Below, piece after piece: positions 1 through 60,183 of a stretch of DNA of 64,000 bases. The notes below the pieces were generated by a model, which did not search any database, was not told where the DNA came from, and worked only from the letters and a program-made list of their open reading frames with translations. How positions within the stretch are numbered: the stretch's first letter is position 1; every line of letters begins with the position of its first letter. The stretch is taken from positions 28,727-92,726 of the forward strand of contig CAZSBG010000009.1 of NCBI GenBank assembly GCA_964605145.1, read 5' to 3'. The stretch comes from an uncultured Cytophagia bacterium (lineage in GTDB: Bacteria > Zhuqueibacterota > Zhuqueibacteria > Thermofontimicrobiales > Thermofontimicrobiaceae). The translations under genes and the position numbers were made by a program.

Positions 1-527
1 TTATCAACGCAATCTACCATGATATCCGTACGGGAATCAATATTTTTTGATAATCCCAATGATAAACCATAAATCCAGTGGTCTACCAATTTTATTACTT
101 CTTGCTTCATTTCTGGAGAGGACAGGATTTGACGAAGGCGTTGAATTTTAAGGCGGTATAATTTCGTATTATGTGTTCCAACCGCCAATAAGCCAAGTCC
201 AAGCCCATATTTTTTAATGTTCATTCCAAAAATCGCTTGACCTGCAATGGCGCTGAAAAAATGGTTGCGACTTCCTTTGACCTTTCCATTTTCCACTTGG
301 ACAGAAAAAATTTCGACTTTACCTGAATGAACATACCACACACTTTCATCATCATCCAATACAAACGGTGTATTTCCACCGACAACGCTAAGGCTGCCTT
401 CTCGTTCAAATAAGTCTCTCAGAGAACGGGCTGATGATTTGCTGTGTTGTTTAAAAACCTCCTGTCCAATAAAGGAGGCCGTTTCAGTTGTATTATCTGG
501 CTTGTATCCTATTGATTTATCTGCCAT
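1..527 (-). CDS. 5' part (N-terminal ~175 aa) of an NHLP/NHLM-type bacteriocin export ABC transporter, cyclic-nucleotide-binding-like domain; the gene continues beyond the window start
   Basis: Manual reverse translation from ATG at ~527 gives MADKSIGYKPDNTTE...VWYVHSGKVEIFSVQVENGKVKGSRNHFFSAIAGQAIFG..., with no stop before position 1. The beta-roll resembles a cNMP-binding domain. Such a domain at the N-terminus of the second ABC protein is typical of NHLM bacteriocin systems. The ORF is absent from the track because it is open-ended. Confidence 0.5.
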   Translation of the reverse strand, partial: MADKSIGYKPDNTTETASFIGQEVFKQHSKSSARSLRDLFEREGSLSVVGGNTPFVLDDDESVWYVHSGKVEIFSVQVENGKVKGSRNHFFSAIAGQAIFGMNIKKYGLGLGLLAVGTHNTKLYRLKIQRLRQILSSPEMKQEVIKLVDHWIYGLSLGLSKNIDSRTDIMVDCVD

Positions 528-796
528 AATAGCTCCTTGTTCGGAAAAAATATAATGGGAATTAGGAATTTGGAAAAATCAGAAGTTTCTTTTCTAATTC
601 TGAGCTGACCTAACCTGGATAAACCAGAAATTCCAAAACACAAAAATCAAATAACAAATAAAATCCAAACTTCAAAAAGATAAATTTAAAACAATATTAT
701 TTTAATATTTCCACTGGATCTATTTTCTGCCAAAAATGGTCAGGATTTTACTTGTCAGGTACTAAAGTCTAAAAATCCCAATTCTAATTTCCAACG

Positions 797-3055
797 TTAA
801 TTTTCAATCAAATTTGAGTAAGGTCCTTCCATATCTTTCAATTCGTCATGCGTCCCTCGTTGTACTACTTTTCCTCTGCTCAACACAATAATTTCATCAC
901 AGTCTCGAATTGTACTTAATCGATGCGCGACAATAAGACAAGTACATCCACGTCTACGTAAATTGTCATCAATATTTTTTTCAGTTATGGGATCCAGCGC
1001 GCTTGTCGCTTCGTCTAAAACTAAAATTGTCGGATTATTGACCAGGGCACGGGCAATTTCTAATCTTTGCCGCTGACCACCACTAAAGTTATAACCACCT
1101 TCATCGAGAATTCCATCATACCCCCCTGGTTTCACTGTAATGTCATCATGAATACAGGCGTCTTTTGTAGCCAGCACCATATCAACCTTTGGCGCTGTAG
1201 AATCCCATAGCGTTAAGTTGTCTCTTACATTGCCTTCAAAAAGAAAAATATCCTGGTCTACCATTCCTAATGAATTATTGATAACTGTGCGTGGAATTTC
1301 ATACCTGGGTATTCCATCAAAAAGTATTTGTCCACTCCATGGTTTGTATAGACCAGCGACTAATTTGGCCACAGTGGATTTCCCACTTCCAGAACCGCCC
1401 ACAAGCGCAACTCTGGCGCCGGGTTTTATTTTTAAATTCAAATTTTCGATCAATGGCTTTTCTAATCGGCTATATCCGAAACTGACGTTTTTTAATTCTA
1501 CATCTCCAGTTAATTTAATCAACATCTCGTCCTCTTCATCAACCTCTTCATTTTCGTTCTTTATCAAATCATCTTCCTCATATTTTAAAACATCATCTAA
1601 CCGACTCATATCACCTTTTGCATCTTGAAGGGTGGCGCCTAAATTAACAAGCTTGCTCACAGGCCTGGTAAAGCTAGCCATCAAACTTTGAAAGGCTACC
1701 AGCATACCCATACTTAAATGGCCATTCATTACACGCAAACTTCCAATTGCCAGAATTGCAGCTGTATTGAGCATTGTAAGAGTAACAGGAAAAGACGTTA
1801 GAATGTGTGTATAAAGGCCCAGTTTCTGCTGGGCATTCACCATTTTTGATTGGTACCCAGACCAACGAGCAAAAAATTCAGATTCACTGCCATCCGCTTT
1901 GAGCGTTTCGATCATTTGCAGTCCATTCATTGCCACACCAAGCATTTTGCCTTGCTCTTGAAGCAGTTTTTGGTTTTCGTCAATCCTCTTTCGGGAAACG
2001 TATTTTAATGCTAATACATTTAGAACCGCAATACTTATTCCAACTAATGTAAGAACAATGTCATAGTAAAACATAAGGACTGCGTAAAAAACCAGAGTTA
2101 TTAAACTGAGTACCGTAGTTGCCATTTCGCCAGAAAGTAACTGAGCAATTCGGTCATTAATCAGTACTCGTGAAGATATTTCGCCACCATATCGTTGCGA
2201 GAAAAATTCAATGGGCAATTTGAATACGTGCCACAGGAATTTACTTGAAGAACTAAGTGTGAATTTTGTTTCCATGCGTAGCAGATAATATTGCTGCAAC
2301 CATGTCAAACCGGCTCGTAGAATTGCGGTAATTCCCATTGCCAACAGCAATGGTTTTATCCAATCTTTCATTTGTTTTACTAAAAACTCATCAACAAAAA
2401 TTTTACTGAAAATTGGAATGACTAATCCTGGAATTACAAGCATCAAGCTGATTAATACAATATAGACAATGGCGCTTCTGGATCCTTTTAGCCTTACTTT
2501 TAATGATTTAATGATACTTGCTTTTGCACCGCCTCGAATAAAATCTGGTCCAGGCTCAAATGTTAAAATAACACCGGTAAATGATTCATCGAACTCTTCT
2601 TCACTGACAGTACGTGGGCCTTTTGCTGGATCGTTGAGATAAACACAATTTTTACCAAATCCTTCCAAAACAACAAAATGGTTGAAATTCCAATGGATGA
2701 TAGCCGGCAACTGCAAATTTCTCACTTGTTCAGGTTCTTTCAGAAAACCTTTGGCAATCAATCCATATTTTCGGGCTGCTTTGATCATATTGTTTGCTTT
2801 GCTGCCGTCACGTGAGACACCACATTCAATCCGTAATTCTTCTAATGGAACATATTTCGCATGATAGGCCAGAACGATACCCAAAGCGGCTGCACCACAT
2901 TCCACTGCTTCCATTTGCAGGATGGTCGGAGTTTTTGCCCGGCGTTTGCCTAAAATGTGTTTTATTATCCTGTCAAAAATTTTATTTTTAAAAATGAGGT
3001 TTAAGTTTTTCAATTTTTGATAGGTATCAGTCAATATTATTTTTACGGAATCCAT
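797..3055 (-). CDS. Bacteriocin-processing and export ABC transporter with N-terminal peptidase C39 domain, permease and ATPase
   Basis: The N-terminus has QMEAVECGAAALGIVLAYH with the catalytic Cys, and a downstream His in HWNFNHFVVL. A six-TM permease core follows. The C-terminal ABC ATPase carries GGSGSGKST (Walker A), LSGGQRQRLEIARAL (signature) and ILVLDEATSALD (Walker B). Confidence 0.85.
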   Translation of the reverse strand: MDSVKIILTDTYQKLKNLNLIFKNKIFDRIIKHILGKRRAKTPTILQMEAVECGAAALGIVLAYHAKYVPLEELRIECGVSRDGSKANNMIKAARKYGLIAKGFLKEPEQVRNLQLPAIIHWNFNHFVVLEGFGKNCVYLNDPAKGPRTVSEEEFDESFTGVILTFEPGPDFIRGGAKASIIKSLKVRLKGSRSAIVYIVLISLMLVIPGLVIPIFSKIFVDEFLVKQMKDWIKPLLLAMGITAILRAGLTWLQQYYLLRMETKFTLSSSSKFLWHVFKLPIEFFSQRYGGEISSRVLINDRIAQLLSGEMATTVLSLITLVFYAVLMFYYDIVLTLVGISIAVLNVLALKYVSRKRIDENQKLLQEQGKMLGVAMNGLQMIETLKADGSESEFFARWSGYQSKMVNAQQKLGLYTHILTSFPVTLTMLNTAAILAIGSLRVMNGHLSMGMLVAFQSLMASFTRPVSKLVNLGATLQDAKGDMSRLDDVLKYEEDDLIKNENEEVDEEDEMLIKLTGDVELKNVSFGYSRLEKPLIENLNLKIKPGARVALVGGSGSGKSTVAKLVAGLYKPWSGQILFDGIPRYEIPRTVINNSLGMVDQDIFLFEGNVRDNLTLWDSTAPKVDMVLATKDACIHDDITVKPGGYDGILDEGGYNFSGGQRQRLEIARALVNNPTILVLDEATSALDPITEKNIDDNLRRRGCTCLIVAHRLSTIRDCDEIIVLSRGKVVQRGTHDELKDMEGPYSNLIEN

Positions 3056-3157
3056 TTTATAAATTCCTTAGCAGTTTCAATTTTATTGGTTATAATAAAT
3101 TAAGTTTTTGCCCCAAAGCCGATTAAAGCAGATTCAATTTAATCGATTAGTCATTCA

Positions 3158-4417
3158 CTAAATACCAAACTTCTCTCTGATTTTGGGAATTACTAAACTG
3201 ATTGGCTTTTGCTCTCGAACAATGATAGCGCTGGAACAGAGAGTTCCACTGTGTATTTTAATTGATGGACCACTGGAAGATGACCACTTATAACCACTTT
3301 CAGTATTCGGGTCAGTGATCAGGTCTGCATAAACTTCAAATGGCGCTCCGCTTCCTGAGAGAACAGTCACGAGTTTTTCATTCTTTAAAACACGCATCAT
3401 ACCCTGGCCGGTGGATGGAAACTCCGCTACAGAAGTTACTTTGCCCAGCATAAATCCAAATTCCTCTTGTTTAACTGTACTGGGAGAGATTTGAATTTCC
3501 ATTCCTGGTCGTACCTTCTTCCCTTCTGTTGGAGAAATATACATGACAGCTTCGATGTCTTTAATTTTATCTCCAATTAAATCCAATTTGAACAATGGTT
3601 CTCCAGTGCGAATTACTTCTCCAACATTTTTGACTACCTCCAAAATTCTTCCGTGGTATGGACTGATAATCTTGGAATTTAATTCCAACTCATTTTTCAG
3701 TATGGACAAACTCCGTTCAGCTTCATTAATTTTTAACTGACTGGCCATGACTTCCTGTTGTTTTCTGTTTTTCAGAGACAACTCAGTTACTGAAATTTCC
3801 TTTAGCTTATTTTGTAGGTTTTCTACTTCAGCCTGGGTCGCATAAAAATTCTGCTTTGTTGACAACAATGTTTGCCTGGTAATTAGGCCTTGTTTCAACA
3901 AATCTTCCTGTACACGTACTTTCTCTTCGATCCAGTTTAATTGCTTTTTTGAAGCTTCAATAGACGAGAGCAGAATATTCCGCTGTTGGGTCAAAAAATC
4001 AGATTGGAGTCTCAGGTCTTTCGTTCCAAAATCAATCAGTTCATCGTGTCGCAGTTTTAGCTCTTGCAGGCTTGTATCAGCTTGTTGGATTTTTAGCATC
4101 AGGGCCGGTTGAGCAATATTGACTATCACTTGCCCCTTTTTAACTTGTTCGCCACTCTGAACCAGAATATCTGTAATTTGACCATTGCCAAGAGAGACAA
4201 TGTCAAAGACGCCACCTGATCTAATTAACATACCGCTTCCCATTACCTTTGTTGGAATTTCTCCATATAATCCCCATATTAAAACTGTGACCAATATGCA
4301 CGCCAATGCAATAAGCGCAATCCAACCTCTTGATGTTGTAATCTGCATTAACTCGTCTAACTGCTCCGGGGAAGATAATCTTTCCAGAGAAACTTTTCGA
4401 AACACTTGTTTTTTCAT
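3158..4417 (-). CDS. HlyD-family membrane fusion / bacteriocin secretion protein
   Basis: It has a single N-terminal TM segment, a long coiled-coil and a C-terminal beta domain. It overlaps the downstream ABC transporter gene by 4 nt, so the two are probably co-transcribed. Confidence 0.8.
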   Translation of the reverse strand: MKKQVFRKVSLERLSSPEQLDELMQITTSRGWIALIALACILVTVLIWGLYGEIPTKVMGSGMLIRSGGVFDIVSLGNGQITDILVQSGEQVKKGQVIVNIAQPALMLKIQQADTSLQELKLRHDELIDFGTKDLRLQSDFLTQQRNILLSSIEASKKQLNWIEEKVRVQEDLLKQGLITRQTLLSTKQNFYATQAEVENLQNKLKEISVTELSLKNRKQQEVMASQLKINEAERSLSILKNELELNSKIISPYHGRILEVVKNVGEVIRTGEPLFKLDLIGDKIKDIEAVMYISPTEGKKVRPGMEIQISPSTVKQEEFGFMLGKVTSVAEFPSTGQGMMRVLKNEKLVTVLSGSGAPFEVYADLITDPNTESGYKWSSSSGPSIKIHSGTLCSSAIIVREQKPISLVIPKIREKFGI

Positions 4418-6015
4418 TGTGTTAAATCCTCCTTAAAAGGAATTGATAATAATTTGTTTGAATCTACCTCTATCCCATCCTGATTCATGTCAATTAAAGT
4501 CCCGGTTTCATACCTTAATTTTGCTATGGCTTCTGCATAGCTAAGCTGTGCTAAAATCTGGTTGAGCAAAGCGTTTGTCAACCGATCTTCGTAGAGAATT
4601 AAATCGATGAGTGTTGAAAGACCCTGTTGAAATTTGATTTTTTCATTTTCAACTGTTGACTGATATAGAGTAATTGCTTCCTTTGATTTATTAAGTCGCT
4701 GCATACTGCTTTTGAGGTTATTAAGAGCAATAATGACATTTGATTTGATATTCCTGGCAATTTCATCGCTTTGAATAATATTTTGTTGATATTCCGAATT
4801 TCGTTGCAATACCAGTCCATGATGAACATTTGTTGGCAATTCCCAGGTCAGTGTACCGCCAAAATTTAAGCCGGAGATATTTTGATTGAATGGCGTAAAA
4901 TAATGATTAAATGTATTTCCCTCATTAAGTCCTTTGTATCCTGAATATAAATCTAAAGATAGTTTTGGCTTTTCCAGATTTTGTGATTCAACCAGGAGCA
5001 CTTTGGATTCATTTTCCCTGTTCACTGACGCTTCCAGATCTGTTCGTTTTTTCAAAGCTGTATTTATGAAATACTCGGGATCGATATTGGCAAAGACGCT
5101 GTCATTTACTATTGCAGGAAAGTCATCTATTGGTGCGGGAAGCGCGAGGATTTCCCGATTGGGGAGCCCCATAGCCAGGCCTAAACTTTGTCTTGATTGG
5201 TAGAGATCCTGCGCAGCAGCGATTCGTATTGATATTTTATCTGCCAGGTTCGCTTGTAATTGATTGATTTCAGCCCTGGGGCGTTCCTCTGCCTCGATTA
5301 GAATTTCGGTCTCCTTGACCAATTTCTGCGCTCTCAACTCAGATTCTTTCTTTATTTCAAGAATTTTGTATGACGCCACATAGTTCCAGTAGGCAATAGT
5401 GGTAGTATAAACGTTGAATGAGGTTGAATGATTTAATTCCAACTGACTGGCTTTATATTCTATTTTTAATGCGGCTTCCCTGGCTGCCGTAACTGATTTT
5501 CCTCTTCCTCTCAACAATGGAAGCGTAGCGGTCATATTAAATTCTGCATAATTAGGCACAGTTGGATAATTAATGCTATCTTCTATCCGATTCAATGTAA
5601 TACTCGAATTAACTACAATCCCGGTTCGAAACTGTTTTTGGATGCCAATATCATAGTAAGATTGATTTTGCGTGAGATAAGATAAACCGTTTATACGTTG
5701 ATCTTGAAGTAACGGATTATTATCCCTCTCAGCGCCAAGACTTGATTGAAAACTCCACGAGAATTGCCCTTCTGCGGCTATTAACTGCCCCTGTATTTGA
5801 TTTACCTGCTCTTTGTATAGTCGAATATTGGGATGTTGCTTTATTGAGGTATGTACAGCACTTATTAGCTTCAATTGTTTAATAGTGGTAATCTGAGCAG
5901 ATGTGGTTGCATTTTGTAATAAAACTAAAAGAATTAGGAAACCAATCCTTTTTAATTTTTTATAAACCGCAATCAAGTTATTTTGATAAGCGCTCGCTAT
6001 TCTATACATTCTCAC
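4414..6015 (-). CDS. TolC-like outer membrane efflux protein (OEP family)
   Basis: The 533-aa protein has an N-terminal signal region and repeated helical/coiled-coil halves of OEP type. It sits at the head of the HlyD-ABC operon and overlaps hlyD by 4 nt. The start codon is uncertain. Confidence 0.7.
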   Translation of the reverse strand: MRMYRIASAYQNNLIAVYKKLKRIGFLILLVLLQNATTSAQITTIKQLKLISAVHTSIKQHPNIRLYKEQVNQIQGQLIAAEGQFSWSFQSSLGAERDNNPLLQDQRINGLSYLTQNQSYYDIGIQKQFRTGIVVNSSITLNRIEDSINYPTVPNYAEFNMTATLPLLRGRGKSVTAAREAALKIEYKASQLELNHSTSFNVYTTTIAYWNYVASYKILEIKKESELRAQKLVKETEILIEAEERPRAEINQLQANLADKISIRIAAAQDLYQSRQSLGLAMGLPNREILALPAPIDDFPAIVNDSVFANIDPEYFINTALKKRTDLEASVNRENESKVLLVESQNLEKPKLSLDLYSGYKGLNEGNTFNHYFTPFNQNISGLNFGGTLTWELPTNVHHGLVLQRNSEYQQNIIQSDEIARNIKSNVIIALNNLKSSMQRLNKSKEAITLYQSTVENEKIKFQQGLSTLIDLILYEDRLTNALLNQILAQLSYAEAIAKLRYETGTLIDMNQDGIEVDSNKLLSIPFKEDLTQ

Positions 6016-6913
6016 ACCTATGTTAGTTTGATTATTTATTTTCTATTACCGATTAGTTCTGTGCATTATTGGCAGAAAACAACAAACGACAAAATTTAAA
6101 TGCACCAAAGGATGCACCAGTATATGGTTAGTCCCTATTAAATTCCAAATCTCAAAACTCAATCATCAAACTTTATTTGAAAATACAATCCAGCCAGGGA
6201 CGGGTTTGTTATTTTGGATTTTCTTATGGTGATTTGTTTATTTTTTGGTTTGTGGTTTTTGTTGTTTCCAACTTATCCGGCTTAGGAATATGTATCTGTT
6301 TCCATACTGAATTGACTTGTATATCCATAGATTATATTAACAAAGAATATGCCTATAAATGTTATATTATTTAACATATTAATTATTTTATAAATAAGAG
6401 ATAAATAATTTGTGAAGGAAATATATAAATATAGAGTTGCAGCTCTATGTCGTGTTTGAAATAATTCTACATAATAAGTGTTGACGCGCTGACATTTTCA
6501 ACTTCAAAAAGTACCTGTCGATAAAATCTTATTCAAACTAAGTTAGACTGTTTTACGTAGAAATATAGATTAATAATAGAATTATAACATAAAAATAAAC
6601 AGTATATTATATTAATATTTAAATTATCTTGATACAAATCGAAATTCAATGACATTAGTTTTTAATGACTAATTTTCAGTCTTTGCTATTCTTGGTTTGT
6701 AATGATACTGGTTCAGCCAACCGCCTTTAAATAGAAAGGTAGCTCTATTAAAAATGAATTTTCAAACTGATTTTTTAATAATATTTTTGAATTGGCAATG
6801 TATGTCTATTAATGAGGATTAAGGGAGAATTTATGTTCACAGGTAGATTGAGATGATTATTGTGTAAAATTAATCAATTGTCTGGTAAAATGAGCAGGAT
6901 AATTGGGGAGCAC

Positions 6914-6959
6914 AGAAAAAAAAGCGGCTGGCCCTTCTTCGTAAAAGATCCAACCGCTG
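6914..6959 (-). terminator. Rho-independent terminator downstream of ppdK
   Basis: Read on the minus strand, the sequence is AGCGGTTGG-loop-CCAGCCGCT followed by TTTTTTTT. Confidence 0.6.
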
Positions 6960-6988
6960 TAAATATATGACCAGATAATTTTCAAACA

Positions 6989-9664
6989 TTATTTGTTTTT
7001 TAATACGGCATGCGCTGCTGCCAACCGGGCGATGGGCACGCGATATGGCGAGCAACTGACATAATTCATGCCAACGCGATGGCAAAAATCAACGGAGCGG
7101 GGATCGCCACCGTGTTCACCGCAAATTCCAATTTTAAGGTTGGGTTTAGTTTTCCGGCCTTTTTCAACCGCCATTTCAACCAATTGGCCAACACCGTTTT
7201 GGTCCAGAGTCTGGAACGGATCATCCGGTAGAATTCCTTTATCATCGTACTCTTTGAGGAATTTGCCGGCATCGTCGCGGCTGAAACCAAATGTCATTTG
7301 CGTCAGGTCGTTGGTTCCAAAAGAGAAAAACTCGGCTTCTTCTGCAACCAGATCTGCTGTCAGTGCGGCGCGGGGAATTTCGATCATGGTTCCAACCATG
7401 TAATCGATTTGCACGCCCATATTTTTCTGCACCTCCTCAGCGACTTTCACAACGACGACTTTCTGGTTTTCCAGTTCTGCCTTTGTGCCGATGAGAGGAA
7501 TCATGATTTCAGGCAGGACATTGACGCCTTCTTTTTTCAACTGGCAGGCAGCTTCGATGATGGCGCGCACCTGCATTTCGGTGATTTCCGGGTAGCTGAT
7601 GCCCAATCGACAACCGCGATGTCCGAGCATGGGATTAAATTCGTGCAGCGAATCGACCTTGGCTTTGACTTCTGCTGGAGAAACACCCATTTCTTTTGCC
7701 ATTTCAGCCTGATTTTCTTCATCGTGAGGTAGGAATTCGTGCAAGGGTGGATCCAGTGTGCGGACCGTTACCGGCAAATCATGCATGGCTTTGAAGATGC
7801 CATAAAAATCTTCGCGCTGGTATGGCAGCAATTTTTCAAGCGCTATACGGCGACCTGCTTCATCGTCGGCCAATATCATTTCGCGCACCGCTTTGATTCG
7901 ATCGCCTTCAAAGAACATGTGTTCAGTTCGGCACAATCCAATACCTTCCGCGCCAAAATTTCTGGCAACTGTTGAATCGTTCGGTGTATCCGCATTGGTG
8001 CGTACTTTGAGTTCTCGGATTTCATCGGCCCATTCCATTAATTGACCAAAGTTCCCGGAGAGTTCAGGATTGACAGTCGGGACTTTTCCTTCGATAACTT
8101 CACCTTTGGAGCCGTCCAGTGAGATCCAGTCACCTTCATTGTACATTTTACCAGCCACGGTCATTGTTTTGGTTTTATATTTTATTTCAAGCGCTCCACA
8201 GCCGGCAACGCAGCATTTGCCCATTCCTCTGGCGACCACCGCTGCATGCGAGGTCATTCCGCCACGGGCGGTTAAAATGCCTTTTGCGACGTTCATTCCG
8301 CCAATGTCTTCCGGCGAGGTTTCGATTCGAACCAGAATGACATTTTCTCCTCTGGCAGCCCATTCTTCTGCATCATCTGCGTGAAAGACAATTCGTCCTG
8401 TTGCCGCGCCTGGTGAGGCAGGCAGGGCTTTGGCAATCACTTTTTTCTCTGCATTGGGATCGAACATGGGATGCAGCAATTGATCGAGTTGGTGAGGCTC
8501 CACCCGCAACACGGCCGTTTCTTTATCGATTAATCCTTCTTCTACCATTTCAACGGCAATTCGGACAGCGGCTGCTGCGGTACGTTTGCCGGTCCTTGTC
8601 TGAAGCATCCACAATATGCCTTTTTGAATCGTGAACTCGATATCCTGCATTTCTTTGTAATGATCTTCCAGCTTAAGATAGATGGCCTCCAATTCATCAT
8701 ACGCTTTCGGCATAATTTCCTGAAGGGTCTTATGCGAGGGATCGCTCTTTGTGGAGTCGTTGATCGGCTGGGGCGTACGAATTCCGGCGACAACGTCTTC
8801 ACCCTGGGCATTGACCAGGTATTCACCGTAAAATTGTTTGTTGCCTGTTGCAGGATCCCGCGTGAATGCCACGCCTGTGGCGCAGTCATCGCCCATATTG
8901 CCAAATACCATGGATTGAACATTCACTGCCGTGCCCCAGTGGCTCGGAATTTGATTCAATTTACGATAGGTGAGTGCCCGGGGATTATTCCACGAACTGA
9001 ACACTGCTCCAATAGCGCCCCATAATTGTTCCCACGGATCGGTTGGGAATTCAGTGCTGGTTCGTCTTTTGATTTCAGCCTTGAACTGAGAGACCAGTTC
9101 TTTCAGATCATCTGCTGTCAATTCTGTATCTAACTTCACACCTTTTTTGTCTTTCATTTCGTCGATGATGATTTCAAAGGGATCTTCTTCTTCTTTGGAT
9201 TCCGGTTTCATCCCCATGACAACATCGCCATACATCTGAACGAATCGGCGGTAAGAGTCCCATCCAAATCGTTCGTTATCGGATTGCTTAATGATTCCCC
9301 GAACAGTGACATCATTCAGGCCCAAATTTAAGACTGTGTCCATCATGCCCGGCATGGACGCTGGAGCACCTGAACGCACTGAGAGGAGTAATGGATTTTC
9401 ATTATCACCAAACACAGCGCCCATTTCTTCTTCAATGTGTTTCACACCTTCTTTAACCTGAGTTTTTACGTCGTCGTTATACTGGCCTTTGTTTTCATAA
9501 TAGGCTAAACATACTTCGGTTGAAATAGTAAATCCGGCAGGTACAGGAATCCCCAGATTCGACATTTCCGCCAGGTTAGCGCCTTTTCCGCCCAACAATT
9601 CTTTCATTGTCGCTTCGCCATCGGCTTTGCCTTTTCCAAAAAGATAAACATACTTCTTACCCAT
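6989..9664 (-). CDS. ppdK: Pyruvate, phosphate dikinase
   Basis: The 890-aa protein opens with the canonical [12 protein letters not shown]...[11 protein letters not shown]-terminus. It has the central phospho-His domain [19 protein letters not shown] and a C-terminal PEP-utilising domain. The true start is probably the second Met of the tracked ORF. Confidence 0.95.
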
Positions 9665-9883
9665 CAAAATTTCTCCCTAACTTTGTTCAAAAAAATATAT
9701 ATTTATTTAAAATGATTATATTCAATGTTTCATATTTTACTGATAAAAAGAAGAGATGCTCGGCTCGTTTTTCGAATAGATTTTTTGAGACTTGCAAGCA
9801 TCTCTCATTTCGTTGGAAAGAGAAAGGTTCCCAACTGTGTGTCAATATGAATTTGGCTATTTGTATCTAAAACTGATTATAAT

Positions 9884-15594: not shown

Positions 15595-15841
15595 GATGTC
15601 TGCTCCCGTGTAAATTTTTATTACAAAAATAACCTGATGTCTCAGGAGTTATCGCACTTTTTTCGCCCGAGATCAATGAAAAAAACTGGATGCGTTGAAT
15701 ATTTCTTATGAAAATGACTTTAATTTCTATATTTACTTTAACACGATAAAAATTACCTGAAAATATCTAAAATTTCAGATTTTGAAAAAAATAATGATAA
15801 CGAATTTAAATTTCTTCGTTAACGGGGTTCTGGTGCGCAAG

Positions 15842-34410: not shown

Positions 34411-34546
34411 AATTCTCCCCTGTAATCATCCAGCAAGTGAAAATATATTTTGATAAACCACGAAGCTCGCGGAGTTCACGAAGAAAAAGATGTTGAAAAA
34501 ATATTCTTTTCCTTCTCAGTAGTGTAATTCACTTTTTTAAATATCG

Positions 34547-34708
34547 CTACCGAACATTTTTAAATTATGTTCGGTAGAGCTGTCATTCCCGTACCACAGG
34601 CATTCCCTTCGGTCACATGCCTGCAAAGTTGCATTATATTTTTAGATGAAAGCAGACTTTGCTTTTAGCGGAATCTCATCGAGATATAGAATGAGATTCC
34701 TGTCCTCC
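34547..34708. repeat. MITE-like palindromic element, copy 1 (TGTCATTCCCG... family)
   Basis: A hairpin CTACCGAACAT...ATGTTCGGTAG is followed by TGTCATTCCCGTACCACAGGCATTCCCTTCGGTCACATGCCTGC. An internal GGAATCTC...GAGATTCC hairpin follows. Near-identical sequence recurs in reverse orientation at 38744-38885 and 45470-45548. Confidence 0.6.
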
Positions 34709-38575: not shown

Positions 38576-38743
38576 AGAATTTCTCCTTAAAAAATTGATT
38601 TTTTTAAATCCTCAAACTATTATTTAGAATTGCGATCAGCTCTCAGCATTCAGCTATCAGCTTCCTGAGTAAAAAAGGAATCATCATTTGACCATTCTTC
38701 TTTCAATGAACCTAATACTACTTGGCCAGATTATCCATTTGTT

Positions 38744-38885
38744 GTCATTCCTGCGTGCTTTTTGCAGGAATCTCAATCAATATCGTGAGGAGATTCCCTA
38801 AAAGCAAAGTCTGCATTCATTTAAAAATATAATGAAACTTGGCAGGCATGTGACCGAAGGGAATGCCTGTGGTACGGGAATGACA
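38744..38885. repeat. MITE-like palindromic element, copy 2
   Basis: It runs from TGTCATTCCTGCG to CGGGAATGACA. Nested hairpins are present (CCTGC...GCAGG and GGAATCTC...GAGATTCC). The right half is the reverse complement of copy 1. Confidence 0.6.
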
Positions 38886-42636: not shown

Positions 42637-42966
42637 TCAAACTGTCGCGCGCTTCAACGCGTTTTTCAGTTTTTTCATTTGATTCCGAACCGCTTTCAAT
42701 TCTTTATTGTCATGTGCTTCCAGGGCGGCGTCTCGTTTCTTTTTCAATTGCCGTATTTGAGATTTGATTTTTGATTTATTAACACCAACCACTTCATGGT
42801 GGATGTGCATGTCGATATCCAGCGCTTTGCATACTGCTTCCAGCAAGTGCTCCTTGTTCAATTGAGTGTACCCCTGAACTGCTTCGTGTTCGGTTCCCGC
42901 AGCAATTTCACGAAGTTGAGCGACTGTCTTCTTCTTTAATTCTTCATAAGTGTGAGACATTGTCAT
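42637..42966 (-). CDS. Small hypothetical protein with Rho N-terminal-like helix
   Basis: The N-terminus YEELKKKTVAQLREIA resembles Rho_N or SAP-like segments. A basic coiled C-terminus follows. The gene has its own terminator. Confidence 0.4.
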   Translation of the reverse strand: MTMSHTYEELKKKTVAQLREIAAGTEHEAVQGYTQLNKEHLLEAVCKALDIDMHIHHEVVGVNKSKIKSQIRQLKKKRDAALEAHDNKELKAVRNQMKKLKNALKRATV

Positions 42967-45322: not shown

Positions 45323-45548
45323 CACTACCGGACACTTTTTCCAAAATTACATTTTAGATCAAATTGTCATGCCCGAATGCCATGTCCAGCTTCCATTAAA
45401 TTTATAAAGGATGACAGACTGGGCTTCTATCGGGCATCCATTTGACAAAATTTTATGAGATTCCCGCCAAAAACATGTGACCGAAGGGAATGCCTGTGGT
45501 ACGGGAATGACAGCTCTACTGAACATAATTTGAAAAGTGTCCGGTAGT
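45323..45548. repeat. MITE-like composite palindromic element, copy 3, bounded by an 17-18 bp perfect inverted repeat
   Basis: CACTACCGGACACTTTT at 45323 is reverse-complementary to GAAAAGTGTCCGGTAGTG at 45532. The interior holds TGTCATGCCCGA...TCGGGCAT and the family core ...CATGTGACCGAAGGGAATGCCTGTGGTACGGGAATGACA. Confidence 0.6.
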
Positions 45549-45697
45549 GAAAATATAGAAAAAAACTTGAGGAATGCAAGGAATAATTGAGGCGAACATT
45601 GTAACATCGAATTAGAAAATAATACAATTCTCAATTAGCCGTTGACAGTTATCAATCTTCAATTGTCAATAGCTAATTGTCAATGTACATTTATGAT

Positions 45698-47191: not shown

Positions 47192-47286
47192 TTTATTCCT
47201 TTATTTGTTTAGTATTCAGTTGCCACGAAGCCTCGAAGTCTCGAAGGCAAAGTATTCCTTTCAAGAAACTTGATTTTTTTTCCAAT

Positions 47287-47316
47287 GTCATTCCCGCATT
47301 CTGTTGGCGGAATCCA
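47287..47316. repeat. Partial MITE-like element (left end only), copy 4
   Basis: TGTCATTCCCGCATTCTGTTGGCGGAATCC matches the left terminus and first hairpin of the 59876 copy. No right terminus is present. Confidence 0.35.
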
Positions 47317-47862: not shown

Positions 47863-48093
47863 TTAGCTCTGCTTCGTCCCTGTATAAACAAACGCGTGTC
47901 GGTTCATTTTGATGTACCCACCCATAACCGTTCCGATAATTTTGCCGCACGGGCATAGCACATTCGTCCCGTCAAATTCGGCGTCATAAATTTTGGTGAT
48001 CCGCGAGCGGTAGCATCGCAGCACCTCGCCGCTGCCGATTTTTTCGTACTTCCAAAGTTTTCGCTTGCAGCCGGCGCATTTTATGGTTAACAT
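47863..48093 (-). CDS. Small zinc-ribbon protein (hypothetical)
   Basis: The 76-aa ORF has CAGC...C and CPCG Cys pairs. It lies directly downstream of the large secreted protein gene on the same strand. Confidence 0.4.
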   Translation of the reverse strand: MLTIKCAGCKRKLWKYEKIGSGEVLRCYRSRITKIYDAEFDGTNVLCPCGKIIGTVMGGYIKMNRHAFVYTGTKQS

Positions 48094-48141
48094 GTGATTT
48101 CCATTTTCTTAATTTCTTTAGCTCACAATTCGGGAGCCATT

Positions 48142-54759: not shown

Positions 54760-55770
54760 TTGACCTACGCTATCGAAACAGTCGGATTGACCAAAGAATA
54801 TCCGCAACATCGGGGCTATTCGGAATTGCTCCTGCATCCGCTTCGAAAGAAATCGTTCACGGCGCTGAAAAATATCTCGTTGCAGCTTCGTCACGGTGAA
54901 CTGTTCTGCCTGTTAGGATCCAACGGCGCCGGAAAAACCACACTCATCAAAATTTTGTGCTCGCTGGTTTTGCCCACATCCGGCAAGGCATTTGTGGACG
55001 GATTCGATGTGGTAAAGCAGGGGGGAGAAGTCCGAAAAAAAATAGGTTACGTGGTCAGCGATGAACGCAGCTTTTACTGGCGCTTGACAGGCCGGCAAAA
55101 TCTTCAGTTTTTTGCCACGCTGCACAAAATGCCATCTTCCATCATTCCCGAAAAAATAAATCGATTGCTGGATATGACTGGTTTGCAGCCGGATGCCGAC
55201 AAGTTATTCAAAGATTATTCGTCGGGCATGAAGCAAAAGCTTGCCATTGCGCGGGGATTGCTCAATGACCCTGAAATGGTGTTCATGGATGAACCAACCC
55301 GCAGCCTCGACCCGTACACATCGCACATTTTGAGGAATTTCATCAAAGAAAAAGTTGTGGGGGAAAACGGAAAAACTGTTTTCCTGGCCACGCACAATCT
55401 GCAGGAAGCGGAAACGCTGAGCGATAAAGTCGCCATCATTCACAAAGGTCAATTTCGCGCGTTTGGAACCATGCAGGAAATTCTTCAAAATGGAAAGACG
55501 CGTCCGGTGTTCGCAGTTTCGCTCGCCCGACCAACGCCGGAAGTCCTGTCCCGCTTGAAAGAATCCTTGTTTTCAATTGAATTTATCAGGGATAATGTTG
55601 AATTGCCGCTGAATGGCACTCCTTTTGAATTTGAGATTTCTGGTTCAGAAAATGAAATTCCGAAAATGATTCGAATGATTGTTGAAGCCGGCGGGGATGT
55701 ATTGAGTTGCGCCCCAAAAAAAATATCGCTCGAGCATGTTTTCGCCAATTTCATTCAGGAGGGAAAATGA
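54760..55770 (+). CDS. ABC transporter ATP-binding protein (ABC-2 exporter type)
   Basis: Walker A is GSNGAGKTT, the signature is YSSGMKQKLAIARGL and Walker B is VFMDEPT. A C-terminal extension follows. The apparent start codon is TTG. Confidence 0.85.
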   Translation: MTYAIETVGLTKEYPQHRGYSELLLHPLRKKSFTALKNISLQLRHGELFCLLGSNGAGKTTLIKILCSLVLPTSGKAFVDGFDVVKQGGEVRKKIGYVVSDERSFYWRLTGRQNLQFFATLHKMPSSIIPEKINRLLDMTGLQPDADKLFKDYSSGMKQKLAIARGLLNDPEMVFMDEPTRSLDPYTSHILRNFIKEKVVGENGKTVFLATHNLQEAETLSDKVAIIHKGQFRAFGTMQEILQNGKTRPVFAVSLARPTPEVLSRLKESLFSIEFIRDNVELPLNGTPFEFEISGSENEIPKMIRMIVEAGGDVLSCAPKKISLEHVFANFIQEGK

Positions 55771-56582
55771 GAGCGAGCCTTGCCATTCCCTGGGCGTTTT
55801 TAAAACGCGACCTCCGCAACGAATCCAGTTACAAACTGCATTTTTTCATGCAAATGGCCGGGATTCTTTTTTCCACGGTGACATTTTATTTCTTGTCAAA
55901 ATTAATCGGCACAAAATTCAATGCGTATTTGAAGCCATACGGCGGCGATTACTTTTCGTTCGTTCTCATTGGAATTGCCTTTTCCCATTATTTGCAGGTG
56001 TCGTTGCAGGGATTCAGCAAGGTCATCCGCGAAGCCCAGGTGATGGGCATCCTCGAGCCGCTGTTGGTCACCCAAACGCGAGTCGAAACCATCATCCTGT
56101 CTTCGACGCTGTACAATTTTCTACTCACGTCGCTCCGCGTGATGGTTTTTCTGCTGCTGGGCGCCCTCGTTTTTTCGATGGACATCAGCAATGGAAATTT
56201 CCCCGGCGCGCTGTTGATTTTGCTGCTGACCATCCCATCGTTCAGTTGTCTCGGCATCATTTCAGCAAGCTTCATTATGGTGATGAAAAAAGGCGATCCG
56301 CTGTCCTGGCTGTTCAGCAGCGTTTCGTGGTTGATCGGGGGCGTTTACTATCCAGTTGCGATTCTTCCGCAATGGATGCAGCATTTGGCGTATCTGCTGC
56401 CCATTCGCCATTCCCTGGAAGGCATGCGCATGGCATTGCTGCAGGGATATTCGCTGAAACAACTGCTGCCCAGCATTATCCCGCTGCTGGTTTTTTCGGC
56501 GATCATGCTGCCGCTCAGCTTGTTAATTTTCCGTTTCGCGGTGAGAAAAGCAAAAATAGATGGGACGCTTACTCAATATTGA
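55767..56582 (+). CDS. ABC-2 type transporter permease
   Basis: The product has six TM helices. Its ATG overlaps the upstream stop codon (ATGA) by four nucleotides, which suggests translational coupling. The alternative-frame ORF 55736-56662 was rejected. Confidence 0.75.
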   Translation: MRASLAIPWAFLKRDLRNESSYKLHFFMQMAGILFSTVTFYFLSKLIGTKFNAYLKPYGGDYFSFVLIGIAFSHYLQVSLQGFSKVIREAQVMGILEPLLVTQTRVETIILSSTLYNFLLTSLRVMVFLLLGALVFSMDISNGNFPGALLILLLTIPSFSCLGIISASFIMVMKKGDPLSWLFSSVSWLIGGVYYPVAILPQWMQHLAYLLPIRHSLEGMRMALLQGYSLKQLLPSIIPLLVFSAIMLPLSLLIFRFAVRKAKIDGTLTQY

Positions 56583-57864
56583 AATCAGTGGCAGGGTTTA
56601 TGGGGCATGGGAAACCGGCTTTGTTCAACATCAATAATGATTTTTTTCTGCAAAGCAAATAAAAATAAAATACGACCGGAATGATGCGGTTAAAGAAAGC
56701 AATCACGGGATGAAGTACACTCAAAAGATAGACTTTTTTCGAATTTTGGGAGAGTCGGTATTTATTCCGTAATTTCTCATGAGAAGGGAACAGGCTGACG
56801 AAAATATGCCTCAATTTATTTCCGAAATTTTCAGCAAGTGAAAGACGGCGTGAGAACGAGAATACCTGCTGGTCAACTTTCTGGGCCATGTATAATCGGT
56901 CGAAATAATCCGGGGAAAACTCGGATTTCAATGCAATAAGTATTTCTGAGGGGATTATGTCTGGTATTACCTCATTTGCGAAAAACAGTCCTGCATAAAC
57001 AAAGTGCGACAATTTGTATTTGTGACAGTTAACCAATAACTGCTCCCAATTCAATCTTTCTTTAAACCGAAAAATTACAGCCGAAATATCGTTAATTTCC
57101 CGATAGGTGATGTTCGTGTTTAATTTATAGAAATGATGCACACACAAATGAAGAAGTGTATCTTCAGGGGAAAGGAAAAGAGCATCGATCTTGTCAATTT
57201 TTCCTTGTTTTACTCGGTCCCATATTTCATCAATTTCAATTTTGATAATTTGATTGTTAGTCCGTAACGTCCAGTGCAGTTCAATGGCCGGTCTCCTTTT
57301 TCGGGACATTGGAGCAGAATGGTGGGAAACTGGTGTGCCGTCTTTTCTCATGGCAGTTTTTGATGAAGATGAATAGTTATGCTCATGTAGAATTCTTCGC
57401 GCCCGATTCATATCATCTTTTTTCACCAACAAGTCAAGGTCGCTGGTCTTACGCACGCCCCAATCCTTGTAAACAGTATCCAGCAGCATTGGCCCTTTAA
57501 GAACGACTGTTTCAATTCCCTCTTTTCGAAATAATTCCAGCACAAATTTTAGTTCATCAAAGATAACCACATTCCAGCCGTATGCAGCAATGTATTTTTC
57601 TTTCAATAACGCGAAATGATCGGATGGAATCAAATCCTGTTTTCCGAAACATTTCAGGTTTGAATAAATCAATGAAGCGACCTGCTGATTTATGGCAAAC
57701 TCGACCAGAAAATCACAGCTTGTCTCGCTGGTTATCAGCGATTCAATTTTCTGAAAAATGGTTTCATCCGGAATGACTGTCGACAGAAGCCTGACCAGTT
57801 TTTTCTCTGTTGCAAATTTATTTCTCACAGTGAGCCTCGAAATGCAAGAAGGTTGGAAAAACAT
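56569..57864 (-). CDS. Uncharacterised nucleotidyltransferase family protein (NTP_transf_5/PF14907-like)
   Basis: The minimal nucleotidyltransferase fold motif is LKGPMLLDTVYKDWGVRKTSDLDLLV. The tracked ORF extends 5' into the upstream peptidase gene, so the start is uncertain. Shown here from the internal Met, MFFQ. Confidence 0.55.
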   Translation of the reverse strand: MFFQPSCISRLTVRNKFATEKKLVRLLSTVIPDETIFQKIESLITSETSCDFLVEFAINQQVASLIYSNLKCFGKQDLIPSDHFALLKEKYIAAYGWNVVIFDELKFVLELFRKEGIETVVLKGPMLLDTVYKDWGVRKTSDLDLLVKKDDMNRARRILHEHNYSSSSKTAMRKDGTPVSHHSAPMSRKRRPAIELHWTLRTNNQIIKIEIDEIWDRVKQGKIDKIDALFLSPEDTLLHLCVHHFYKLNTNITYREINDISAVIFRFKERLNWEQLLVNCHKYKLSHFVYAGLFFANEVIPDIIPSEILIALKSEFSPDYFDRLYMAQKVDQQVFSFSRRLSLAENFGNKLRHIFVSLFPSHEKLRNKYRLSQNSKKVYLLSVLHPVIAFFNRIIPVVFYFYLLCRKKSLLMLNKAGFPCPINPATDFNIE

Positions 57865-58364
57865 CGGTTGGTGTAATGAAACAATCGGCGAAACACACCT
57901 CGGAAAAAGCGGTTTTGCCGGGTGAAAAAATAGTTGCTCAGAATTCGCCATTGCATCTGTAGCAGCTTCCCGTACAAGAAATGAATTATGCGATAGCGCC
58001 GGCGTGTAAGATCAATATCTTGATTTTTGGCTTTTATTTCAACGACTTTTCCAAGCACAAGAGACTCCGGAAAAGGATTGTCGAAACGTCCCACAGAATC
58101 ACCCTTTGTGACGATGTAATTAAACATGCCTCTCTGAAATCGGGTTACAAATCGATGTGTGTAATATTTTGTTTCACAATCGATGAGAATAATGTCCCCC
58201 GGAATCAGTTCGGACGCTTTTGCAGCTTCAACAATAATATTATCCCCGGCGTGAATGACCGGGGACATGCTGTTAGTGATAACCTGAGATTTGATTGTTT
58301 GGCAAATAGCCAACTGCTCACGAAGAATTTCAGTTATCACACTTGCCAATTTTTGATCATTCAT
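57825..58364 (-). CDS. S26/S24-like serine peptidase (signal-peptidase-I/LexA fold)
   Basis: The Ser nucleophile box is NSMSPVIHAGDNIIV, and VTKGDSVGRFDNPFPES resembles box D with a candidate general-base Lys. The C-terminal tail is Arg/Phe-rich. Confidence 0.5.
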   Translation of the reverse strand: MNDQKLASVITEILREQLAICQTIKSQVITNSMSPVIHAGDNIIVEAAKASELIPGDIILIDCETKYYTHRFVTRFQRGMFNYIVTKGDSVGRFDNPFPESLVLGKVVEIKAKNQDIDLTRRRYRIIHFLYGKLLQMQWRILSNYFFTRQNRFFRGVFRRLFHYTNRCFSNLLAFRGSL

Positions 58365-58386
58365 AAAATAATTGCAAGTGATTTAT

Positions 58387-58536
58387 TCTATGTATGAGAT
58401 GGGGTACAAAGTAATGAAACAGATGTACAAGAACCAGCCAATGATTCAATAGTATTTGAATGACTGATGTTTGGTTTTATATATCGTTTCTTAATTGATT
58501 TTCTTTTCTTTTTCTCAGAAAAATTTTTTTCTGTCA
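58387..58536 (-). CDS. Candidate RiPP precursor peptide (49 aa; not in the ORF track because it is under 60 aa)
   Basis: Manual translation gives MTEKNFSEKKKRKSIKKRYIKPNISHSNTIESLAGSCTSVSLLCTPSHT. GGGAGA lies 10 nt upstream of the ATG. The start is 50 nt downstream of the radical SAM gene stop, and the stop is 23 nt upstream of the peptidase gene start. The leader is basic; the tail is rich in Cys, Ser and Thr and ends in Thr. Confidence 0.45.
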
Positions 58537-58590
58537 TGATACCAGATCTCCCTAATTTTATGATTTAGCGCAATGAAACAAACCTTAGAA

Positions 58591-59681: not shown

Positions 59682-59709
59682 TTTCTAGTCGTTCGTTTCC
59701 AAAATAGTG

Positions 59710-59797
59710 TGTCATTGCGAGCGAAACGGGGTGAAGCGAAGCAATCCCCTGCCCACAAGCGTGAGATTGCTTCGGCCAAAAATGCCTCGCAATGACA
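59710..59797. repeat. MITE-like palindromic element, copy 6 (TGTCATTGCGAG subtype)
   Basis: It runs from TGTCATTGCGAGCGAA through an internal GAAGCAATC...GATTGCTTC hairpin to GCCTCGCAATGACA. It overlaps the annotated 5' end of the radical SAM ORF. Confidence 0.55.
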
Positions 59798-59875
59798 ATT
59801 ATTTGCAATGTTATTTAGTACTACATAGTCAGATTAAAAAATGTCTCGAAAAACAAAGCAGTATTTCATAATCAT

Positions 59876-59954
59876 TGTCATTCCCGCATGCTTTTAGCGG
59901 GAATCTCCTCGTGTTTTAGAATGAGATTCCTGCAAAAAACGTGCAGGAATGACA
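59876..59954. repeat. MITE-like palindromic element, copy 7 (short TGTCATTCCCGC subtype), inside an 18-bp outer inverted repeat
   Basis: TGTCATTCCCGC is followed by hairpins ATTCCCGC...GCGGGAAT, GGAATCTC...GAGATTCC and CCTGC...GCAGG, then AATGACA. The outer inverted repeat is TACTACATAGTCAGATTA at 59818 and TAATCTGACTAAGTAGTA at 59964. Confidence 0.55.
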
Positions 59955-60036
59955 GAAAAATGGTAATCTGACTAAGTAGTATTAGTATATTACAAATTAT
60001 TTTCTGATCATTTTTGGCAGAATATTTAAATACTCT

Positions 60037-60132: not shown

Positions 60133-60183
60133 CTGGTTTATCCAGGTTAGGAAACGTAATAGTAGTATTATTCATTTGAAGTA

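Follow-up and report, generated by a model that had tools for sequence, protein, structure and literature searches.

Three protein families (TIGR03794, TIGR03796 and TIGR03797) form a three-gene cassette, hereafter the NHLM cassette, that was tied to the NHLP and N11P precursors by phylogenetic profiling (Haft, Basu & Mitchell 2010, PMC2887384). Among peptidase-containing ABC transporters, structures have been solved for PCAT1 of Clostridium thermocellum (PDB 4ry2/8vp3) and for ComA (8hf4), homodimers of monoderm bacteria that work without a membrane-fusion (MFP) or outer-membrane (OMP) partner. In cyanobacteria, CAP_ED domains occur in bacteriocin ABC transporters (PMC4558948), where the clusters concerned are summarised under the groups I-VII of Wang et al. 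2011. HlyB/HlyD/TolC type I secretion, finally, follows the tripartite ABC-MFP-OMP logic over two membranes, with an inactive C39-like domain in HlyB.

The locus described here opens the window, that is, the whole 64 kb stretch of DNA that was analysed; its nearest relative among genomes is a MAG of candidate division KSB1. The features at this end of the window are the following:

4414..6009, minus strand: TolC-like outer-membrane factor, 531 aa from the ATG.
3158..4417, minus strand: HlyD-type membrane-fusion adaptor of the NHLP bacteriocin system, 419 aa (TIGR03794).
797..3055, minus strand: ABC1, of the PCAT type, with C39 peptidase, permease and ATPase, 752 aa (TIGR03796).
3..527, minus strand: ABC2, N-terminal 175 aa only, continuing past the window start; recognised by identity to ABC2 of the related loci L003 and L015.
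528..796, no strand: intergenic gap between ABC1 and ABC2, 269 bp (108 bp in L003), with motif B1 at 610-629 and motif B2 at 725-743.
6016..6988, no strand: AT-rich upstream region of 973 bp (GC 26-33%), presumably the promoter region.

An earlier sequence-only reading had listed four minus-strand ORFs, encoding a TolC-like protein, a HlyD protein, a C39 ABC transporter and a second ABC transporter; all four are found at the positions it gave, the ABC label of the last one being based on its orthologues. The operon is complete-looking but cut by the window, about 2.5 kb short of where ABC2 should end. The TolC-like gene could also begin at a GTG (4414-6015), but the ATG at 6009, called on public contigs, is the likelier start. 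Its product has a hydrophobic signal-like segment at the N-terminus, matches Pfam OEP (PF02321) over two stretches with 79 bits, and is 56% identical to its L003 counterpart, the figure for the HlyD adaptor being 77%. The stop of TolC and the start of HlyD overlap by 4 nt. This first position of TolC, and the order TolC-HlyD-ABC1-ABC2 as a whole, are kept in L003, L018 and L019. Directly next to the cassette, 6 out of 12 related metagenome loci encode an RsbW-like kinase/anti-sigma factor, a STAS antagonist or both.

The same reading had proposed an exporter of the NHLP/Nif11 type, and profile searches with the transport proteins agree. The HlyD adaptor matches TIGR03794 end to end (1-420/421) with 406.5 bits for a cut-off of 156.2, and ABC1 matches TIGR03796 with 1149.1 bits (cut-off 853.3), while the general HlyB, HlyD and bacteriocin_ABC models stay below their own thresholds. 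For TIGR01193, which describes class II bacteriocin cleavage and export ABC proteins of the same superfamily but another subfamily, ABC1 reaches 364.8 bits (cut-off 523.85). Pfam divides ABC1 into C39, ABC_membrane and ABC_tran domains. In the C39 domain (about residues 41-180), Gln47, Cys53, His126 and Asp142 are present and align to the catalytic residues of PCAT1 (4ry2/8vp3); the Walker A (553), signature (657), Walker B (677) and H-loop (710) motifs of the ATPase are intact. ABC1 indeed aligns with PCAT1 and ComA over its full length (E about 1e-107), with the four peptidase residues and all ATPase motifs conserved, but the operon adds to this scheme a peptidase-less ABC protein, an MFP and an OMP. 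With the NHLM cassette (PMC2887384), the locus has in common the gene order HlyD-ABC1-ABC2, and relatives carry adjacent TIGR03793 precursors. It differs from the published three-gene version by its translationally coupled TolC-like gene in front, also seen in L003, L018 and L019, by the lack of any precursor or maturase adjoining the operon in the visible DNA, and by its KSB1-like host lineage, in place of a cyanobacterium, Chlorobi or Firmicute. We conclude that the locus, from a diderm bacterium, very probably encodes a tripartite exporter of peptides that belongs to the NHLP/Nif11 ('NHLM') class.

The second ABC gene called for a closer look. ABC2 starts at an ATG (527-525), its reading frame leaves the DNA at the window start, and the portion inside holds neither membrane nor ATPase domain. 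Searched alone, the 175-residue fragment has no match in NCBIfam or Pfam, and TIGR03797 in particular is missed because this model begins near residue 326 of the full protein. We retain the ABC transporter call because the orthologues are TIGR03797 members: ABC2 of L003 (1011 aa, 67% identity to the fragment) and of L015 (66% identity) score 977.6 and 974.9 bits, respectively (cut-off 709.4). A first homologue search with the fragment was empty, an exhaustive search of representatives returned 716 relatives, and related metagenome loci were obtained by scanning with a 2-sequence alignment. Residues ~35-160 are predicted to form an eight-stranded, CRP/FNR-effector-like beta-barrel followed by a C-helix (AF2 model, pLDDT 87, pTM 0.74), and the best 50 Foldseek matches in the PDB are all CRP, FNR, CooA, CprK, NtcA or GlxR (E about 1e-5, probability 1.00, TM 0.45-0.59). 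Pfam cNMP_binding (PF00027), for its part, has no match in the fragment or in L003 ABC2, and matches 1 of 61 members of the N-domain family (E = 0.009); the profile of this family finds one PDB entry, the Crp-family protein 4ev0 (E = 0.032). The N-terminus had been described as cNMP-binding-like, which stands at the level of the fold but not by the Pfam model. The phosphate-binding cassette (FGE ... R-[ST]-A) is not found: FG is followed by Met102, where most of the 61 homologues have M, I, F or L, and the Arg position is occupied by Leu111, Arg being present in only 13 of 61. With the contacts to a cyclic nucleotide lost, the ligand would most likely be another one, such as the leader, a partner protein or a small signal. 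A degenerate C39-like domain at residues 300-470 of L003 ABC2 was also considered, but pairwise BLAST gave no significant match.

Like the cyanobacterial CAP_ED clusters, the operon combines a CRP-like N-domain on a bacteriocin ABC transporter with a short-type C39 ABC protein and a HlyD protein. One difference is that the CAP_ED-like region is here on a peptidase-less ABC protein, which makes group V (with a separate two-CAP_ED protein) or group VII the closest; another difference is that ABC2 has no Pfam cNMP_binding match and that the Glu and Arg of its phosphate-binding cassette are replaced. In the literature searched, we found no experiment on this operon or any close homologue, and no experimental work on the function of a peptidase-less second ABC subunit.

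How might such a machine work? The analysis shows to which families the proteins belong, which residues the peptidase and ATPase sites have, the fold, the synteny and that the window lacks precursors; heterodimer formation, the class of substrate, the direction of transport and any role of the N-terminal domain are inferences from the families involved. The C39 domain of ABC1 would recognise a ribosomal precursor whose long nitrile-hydratase-like or Nif11-like leader ends in GG, AG or GA, and the putative triad Cys53/His126/Asp142 would cut this leader. The core peptide would then cross an ABC dimer, probably of ABC1 and ABC2, both of which have canonical ATPase motifs, and leave the cell by way of the HlyD adaptor and then the TolC-like channel. 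ABC2 carries N-terminal CRP/FNR-like effector domains in place of a peptidase.

What, then, is exported? The window had been said to contain no precursor, and our searches lead to the same result: neither the models, applied to the 139 intergenic ORFs of the 64 kb window, nor tblastn detect an NHLP (TIGR03793/03795) or Nif11 (N11P, TIGR03798) precursor, and the large ORFs include no LanM or YcaO, the classical maturases. The two gaps singled out earlier (528-796 and 6016-6988) are real and hold no plausible precursor ORF. The model does recognise the positive controls, bona fide NHLP precursors of the related loci L016 and L017, which lie beside cassettes with the same ABC2 N-domain: L016 has one, with 91 bits on TIGR03793 (cut-off 50.9), and L017 two, with 56 and 61 bits, directly after ABC2. 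L003 and L015, the two closest relatives, have no precursor in the flanking DNA available, nor is any NHLP/N11P precursor visible in the short flanks of L018, L019, L020, L022 and L025. In seven related loci, fragments of ABC genes dominated the NCBIfam results for small ORFs, which rule out only NHLP matches stronger than about 6e-15; tblastn complements them for NHLP and, only weakly, for Nif11. Since the operon runs off the window edge and the L017 precursors sit directly 3' of ABC2, the cargo could be encoded just outside the window. The substrate genes may thus lie just downstream of ABC2 or elsewhere in the genome, and 'orphan' status is not established.

The intergenic DNA offers few recognisable signals. 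Within 1-7200, Rfam detects no RNA family, and neither sigma-70-like promoters (32 vs 23.3±4.7 in shuffles) nor terminators (8 vs 5.1±2.4) clearly exceed shuffled sequences. The upstream region contains GGCATATTCTTTGT at 6340-6353; a GGCATATTNTTTGT motif in common with the upstream DNA of L003 is spaced in a sigma-54-like manner, but reads GT, not GC, at -12. Two motifs are confined, within the window, to the intergenic DNA of the export operon and to a radical-SAM RiPP cluster that lies 52 kb from it, near 60 kb. B2 (TTCTGCCAAWAATGNNCAG, 19 nt) has three copies where 0.04 are expected by chance, two in the operon (725-743, and 6059-6077, in sense orientation and 50 nt ahead of the TolC start codon) and one between the PqqD and rSAM genes of the cluster; B1 (CTAACCTGGATAAACCAGAA, 20 nt) occurs at 610-629 and 60131-60150. 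A default repeat search of 1-7200 gave nothing remarkable, and the inverted B2 pair in it stood out only after blastn. An exact-protein look-up returned only public contigs of 4-5 kb that end at the edges of the operon: L001 and L002 both stop at window position ~737, inside B2, and 4/4 contig ends coincide with B1/B2 motifs. Proteins identical to ABC1 and to the ScmC-like protein of the cluster are encoded in SRR7048224/SRR7048225. Because the motifs lie at assembly breakpoints, dispersed repeats are the probable reading, not operators that the two loci share. A simple MITE spanning B1...B2 was discarded, the interiors of the two copies being unrelated (z = 0.02).

Other readings of the cassette can be weighed against this background. 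Its TolC + HlyD + ABC layout could suggest classical type I secretion of large proteins that are not processed, or an exporter of glycolipids like DevBCA/HepA, and sub-threshold matches exist to TIGR01846, TIGR01843, TIGR02971 and NF045513. These models all remain far under their cut-offs (403.3 vs 725.55 for HlyB, TIGR01846; 83.7 vs 208.65 for HlyD, TIGR01843), as does the TolC model TIGR01844 (35 vs 225.15), whereas the NHLM models exceed theirs. HlyB-type C39-like domains lack the catalytic Cys, while ABC1 has kept it; the operon thus differs from the type I systems by a C39 peptidase with predicted catalytic residues and by its two ABC genes, and no RTX-like gene is found nearby. We give this reading almost no credence. 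A cargo of another double-glycine-leader class unmatched by the NHLP/N11P models, for instance a leader family particular to the lineage or a peptide used in signalling, is improbable, if less so; if true, the TIGR equivalog names would overstate substrate specificity. C39 transporters mainly read a short helix preceding the GG site, as established for PCAT1 and ComA, and an NHLP precursor is present in only 2 of about 10 informative loci, the window and the seven relatives above showing none near the cassette. Against this, only short flanks were examined, precursors are often unlinked from their transporters, and the phylogenetic profile ties exactly these three families to NHLP/N11P (PMC2887384).

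Could the exporter serve, alone or additionally, the cluster at 54.7-61.3 kb? This cluster resembles a SynChlorMet cassette, with ScmC-like, PqqD-like, radical-SAM/SPASM (rSAM), S26-like peptidase and NTP_transf_5 genes, and includes one further feature:

58388-58537, minus strand: candidate RiPP precursor of 49 aa, with a good ribosome-binding site.

The sequence-only reading had judged such a link improbable for want of a GG motif. The verdict survives but its ground does not, for the candidate (MTEKNF...ESLAGS/CTSVSLLCTPSHT) has a relaxed double-glycine-type site, I-E-S-L-A-G-S, after which ABC1 would cut to export a 13-aa core with two cysteines. It is the sole biologically plausible small ORF of the window to fit [LIVMF]xx[LIVMFA]xG[GAS], although five implausible ORFs fit as well among the 190 intergenic segments scanned. 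Its leader, short and basic, is not matched by any NHLP/N11P model, and the cluster encodes a signal-peptidase-like protease and a DrrA/B-type ABC exporter of its own. Besides B1 and B2, the two loci have in common a GC content of 37-39%, under the window mean. However, the DNA between B1 and B2 differs entirely in the two copies, the orientation of the motifs relative to the genes is not constant, other repeat families populate the same intergenic region, and contig ends falling at the motifs are as expected of dispersed or variable repeats. We therefore regard a function in this cluster as unlikely, slightly more so than a different leader class, and keep the assignment to the NHLP/Nif11 class.

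The operon is an ordinary member of a known exporter class, a matter of correct annotation rather than discovery. Two features would be potentially interesting if upheld on whole genomes: the recurrent RsbW/STAS neighbours and the cNMP-blind CRP-like domain of ABC2. That TolC-HlyD-ABC1-ABC2 cassettes with such a domain are signal-gated exporters instead of constitutive pumps is a speculation to which we attach little probability. If the RsbW/STAS and B1/B2 links were functional, the exporter would be under partner switching and common to unlinked RiPP pathways, non-NHLP ones included. KSB1 is a phylum poorly explored for natural products. A KSB1-like bacterium here possesses a standard leader-cleaving exporter of the NHLP/Nif11 class together with its own outer-membrane channel gene, and for genome mining the cassette serves as a flag that precursors of double-glycine-leader RiPPs are to be expected somewhere in the genome.

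The interval 1-6015 is occupied by four ORFs on the minus strand, and the coordinates and gene order proposed by the sequence-only reading are correct:

4414-6015, minus: TolC-like ORF, 533 aa from GTG; the ATG at 6009, the start called on public contigs, gives 531 aa
3158-4417, minus: HlyD ORF, 419 aa
797-3055, minus: ABC1 ORF (C39 peptidase), 752 aa
from the ATG at 527-525 past the window start, minus: ABC2 ORF (second ABC transporter), 175 codons visible

A 4-nt overlap between the TolC-like and HlyD genes points to their translational coupling; the HlyD-ABC1 and ABC1-ABC2 gaps measure 102 bp and 269 bp. Upstream, 973 bp of DNA with 26-33% GC extend to the 3' end of a pyruvate phosphate dikinase gene (PPDK, 6989-9667). 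GC content is 37-39% in the export operon (1-6000) and 38-39% in the core of a RiPP cluster (58000-62000), against 42-48% typical of the window. The upstream region carries GGCATATTNTTTGT at 6340-6353(-), a motif also found upstream of TolC (~6940) in L003, the closest genome relative, and having three matches in the window at ≤1 mismatch (0.22 expected). With its GG-N10-G spacing the motif is reminiscent of a sigma-54 -24/-12 promoter, except that GT replaces GC; nearby genes of L003 (137-2980) encode a histidine kinase and a sigma-54-type response regulator.

Family scores and cut-offs were taken from NCBIfam, which includes the TIGRFAM models, and bear out the proposed NHLM (NHLP/Nif11-type) identity of the exporter. 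The HlyD protein reaches 406.5 bits on TIGR03794 (cut-off 156.2) and stays under the cut-off of TIGR01843 type_I_hlyD (83.7 versus 208.65); ABC1 reaches 1149.1 bits on TIGR03796 (cut-off 853.3) and falls short of both TIGR01846 HlyB (403.3 versus 725.55) and TIGR01193 bacteriocin_ABC (364.8 versus 523.85). Judged from these sequence profiles, the ABC proteins belong to the NHLM subfamilies and not to the general HlyB/T1SS families; placement in those general families was what the sequence-only reading had named as its first possible refutation. The TolC-like protein is of the OEP family (Pfam, 79 bits) and matches no curated TolC subfamily (TIGR01844, 35 bits versus 225). As for the second ABC transporter, the window shows its N-terminal extension only, and this 175-aa fragment has no NCBIfam match, even at E = 10, because the TIGR03797 model begins only at residue 326 of the L003 protein (1011 aa, 977.6 bits). 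Its annotation as an ABC transporter rests on orthologues: the fragment shares 67% identity with residues 47-184 of L003 ABC2 and 66% with the corresponding stretch of the protein from L015, a related locus, whose full length scores 974.9 bits on TIGR03797.

L003, a candidate division KSB1 MAG (JAFGDW010000007.1), has the same four genes in the same order, with identities of 56% (TolC), 77% (HlyD), 79% (ABC1) and 67% (ABC2 N-terminus). The flanks are wholly different (PPDK in the window; a radical SAM protein, a solute-binding protein and a two-component system in L003), which suggests that the four genes move together. Phylogenetic profiling has established both the three-gene cassette and its link to NHLP/N11P precursors (PMC2887384). 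The published cassette has no TolC, whereas a TolC gene is added here and recurs in L003 and in the related loci L018 and L019, but is absent from L016.

ABC1 aligns end to end with PCAT1, a solved peptidase-containing transporter (E ~1e-107), and the oxyanion and catalytic residues of PCAT1 are matched by Gln47, Cys53, His126 and Asp142 of ABC1. Both ABC1 and L003 ABC2 have canonical Walker A, signature, Walker B and H-loop motifs; neither this alignment nor these ATPase motifs show signs of decay. By homology, the C39 domain would cleave the leader and the peptide would then cross the ABC dimer, driven by ATP, before leaving by way of HlyD, the adaptor, and the TolC-like channel. We infer that ABC1 and ABC2 heterodimerise, and likewise any role for the CRP-like domain of ABC2; the literature searched holds no experimental work on either.

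The description of the ABC2 N-terminus as cNMP-binding-like stands for the fold but not for the ligand site. Pfam cNMP_binding matches neither the fragment nor full L003 ABC2. An exhaustive search returned 716 relatives of the fragment, many of the best-scoring being 960-1000 aa long with the domain at the N-terminus; PF00027 was reached by one of 61 relatives (E = 0.009), and the domain profile had a single match among PDB sequences, a Crp-family regulator (E = 0.032). The AlphaFold model of the domain is confident (pLDDT 87), and each of the 50 PDB structures that Foldseek ranks best is an effector domain of CRP, FNR, CooA, CprK, NtcA or GlxR (E ~1e-5, probability 1.00). The position after the conserved FG is Met102, hydrophobic in most of the family, and Leu111 stands in place of the Arg, which 13 of 61 members have. 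Since the phosphate-binding-cassette residues are absent, binding of cyclic nucleotides by the domain is improbable. In cyanobacteria, bacteriocin ABC transporters that carry CAP_ED domains have already been described (PMC4558948).

The window contains no recognisable NHLP/N11P precursor, as previously claimed. We compared 139 stop-to-stop segments (≥36 aa, with ≥25 codons outside long genes) with NCBIfam at E ≤ 1; none matched TIGR03793, 03795, 03798 or 01847, and PanD, one signal-peptidase-like and one PqqD-like protein were the only real matches. Precursors from related loci validate the scan as positive controls, passing the TIGR03793 cut-off of 50.9 bits: L016:4079-4360(-) with 91.4, L017:4875-5198(+) with 56.1 and L017:5219-5575(+) with 61.1. 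A tblastn search of the window with the L016 and L017 precursors and an approximate ProcA-like leader gave nothing. The ABC1-ABC2 gap and the AT-rich upstream region, where no small GG-leader ORF had been seen, indeed hold low-complexity ORFs only. Pfam identified no LanM or YcaO among 20 larger window ORFs, finding housekeeping genes instead. Two small conserved-looking ORFs are unrelated to the operon: 42637-42966(-), 109 aa, Rho-N-like and lysine-rich, and 47866-48108(-), ~76 aa, four-Cys zinc-ribbon-like.

The cargo genes may be a few kb outside the window or at a distant site. The last ~2.5 kb of ABC2 lie outside the window, and in L017 two Cys-rich NHLP precursors (…EELEAVAGG/SRCAASCGGSCAASC…) directly follow ABC2, so the cargo is possibly just off-window. 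L016 has one NHLP precursor just upstream of the cassette, divergent and adjoining an FAD-dependent oxidoreductase-like ORF (weak geranylgeranyl-reductase-family match, under cut-off); this precursor has an unusual ...SIAAG/HEQDPCLYESY end. Both precursor-bearing cassettes share the ABC2 N-domain of the window. No precursor was seen in the short flanks after ABC2 of the two closest relatives, L003 (0.45 kb) and L015 (1.1 kb), where L015 has RsbW-like and STAS genes. An "orphan" status of the operon is thus not established. In L003, a B12-binding-type radical SAM protein (5074-6459(-)), divergent and immediately upstream of TolC, is a possible maturase; the 550 bp between the two genes showed no precursor.

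In six of 12 related metagenome loci, the NHLP-type cassette has an RsbW-like anti-sigma kinase, a STAS anti-sigma antagonist or both as direct neighbours:

L015 4831-5730; L016 13195-14029; L020 4966-5641; L022 7194-7720: complete pair
L018 2314-3170: two STAS genes only
L019 2952-3359: RsbW-like gene only

In L015, the closest of these (66% identity), the pair comes right after ABC2, in a stretch that the window lacks. The literature searched includes no paper connecting the RsbW/STAS pair with an NHLP-type export cassette.

A second peptide system lies at the other end of the window:

54760-56582, plus: DrrA/B-like ABC exporter
56569-57951: NTP_transf_5
57825-58364: signal-peptidase-I/S24-like protein (S26/S24-like peptidase)
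58388-58537, minus: 49-aa ORF, precursor candidate, MTEKNFSEKKKRKSIKKRYIKPNISHSNTIESLAGSCTSVSLLCTPSHT, C-terminus with two Cys, good ribosome-binding site
58591-59808: radical-SAM/SPASM protein, below all equivalog cut-offs
60184-60570: PqqD-like protein
60455-61315: HprK-related/ScmC-like protein (Pfam ScmC on the public record)

The cluster (54760-61315) resembles a SynChlorMet-type cassette, its radical SAM protein scoring 106 bits on the SynChlorMet-type equivalog, under the cut-off of 400. Two short motifs are common to this cluster and the export operon:

B2, TTCTGCCAAWAATGNNCAG, 19 nt, with palindromic arms TTCTG...CAGAA: 725-743(+), 6059-6077(-), 60004-60022(-)
B1, CTAACCTGGATAAACCAGAA, 20 nt: 610-629(+), 60131-60150(-)

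B2 has exactly three copies in 64 kb (0.04 expected by chance), and within the window both motifs are confined to export-operon intergenic DNA and the PqqD-rSAM intergenic region, with B1-B2 spacings of 95 and 108 nt. L003 has a B2-like copy ~400 nt after ABC2 (15706-15724(-)).

Are the two systems co-regulated, or do they share export? The sequence-only reading held a link unlikely, and we also consider it improbable, although the shared motifs and a relaxed double-glycine pattern in the 49-aa peptide (I-E-S-L-A-G-S ahead of the core) soften the dismissal. That pattern matches implausible ORFs too, and the cluster has its own protease and its own exporter. Between B1 and B2 the two copies have unrelated sequence (z = 0.02), and the orientation of the motifs relative to genes differs. 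Moreover, all public Logan contig ends for the genes next to these motifs fall at B1 or B2, all four ends of the independent contigs lying at or within ~11 nt of them: the start of L001 is 11 nt before B2 at 6077, L001 and L002 both stop within B2 (~737), and the ends of L027 and L028 are 11 nt past B1 at 60131. Such ends are produced in assembly graphs by repeats or strain-variable junctions. B1 and B2 may be operators, recombination sites or a repeat family. Other dispersed palindromic repeats crowd the same intergenic region at 60 kb, and the intergenic DNA of this genome is repeat-rich. One palindromic family, with 84-94% identity between copies (34530-34702, 38743-38885, 45474-45564, 47283-47314 and 59889-59954), has hairpins including ATTCCTGCA...TGCAGGAAT and ATTCCCGC...GCGGGAAT.

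Three observations are leads rather than results: the RsbW/STAS neighbours, the CRP-like domain predicted to be cNMP-blind, and the sharing of B1 and B2. The annotation of the export operon is correct and ordinary: it is an NHLM exporter, a known kind of system, from a lineage that has been little studied.
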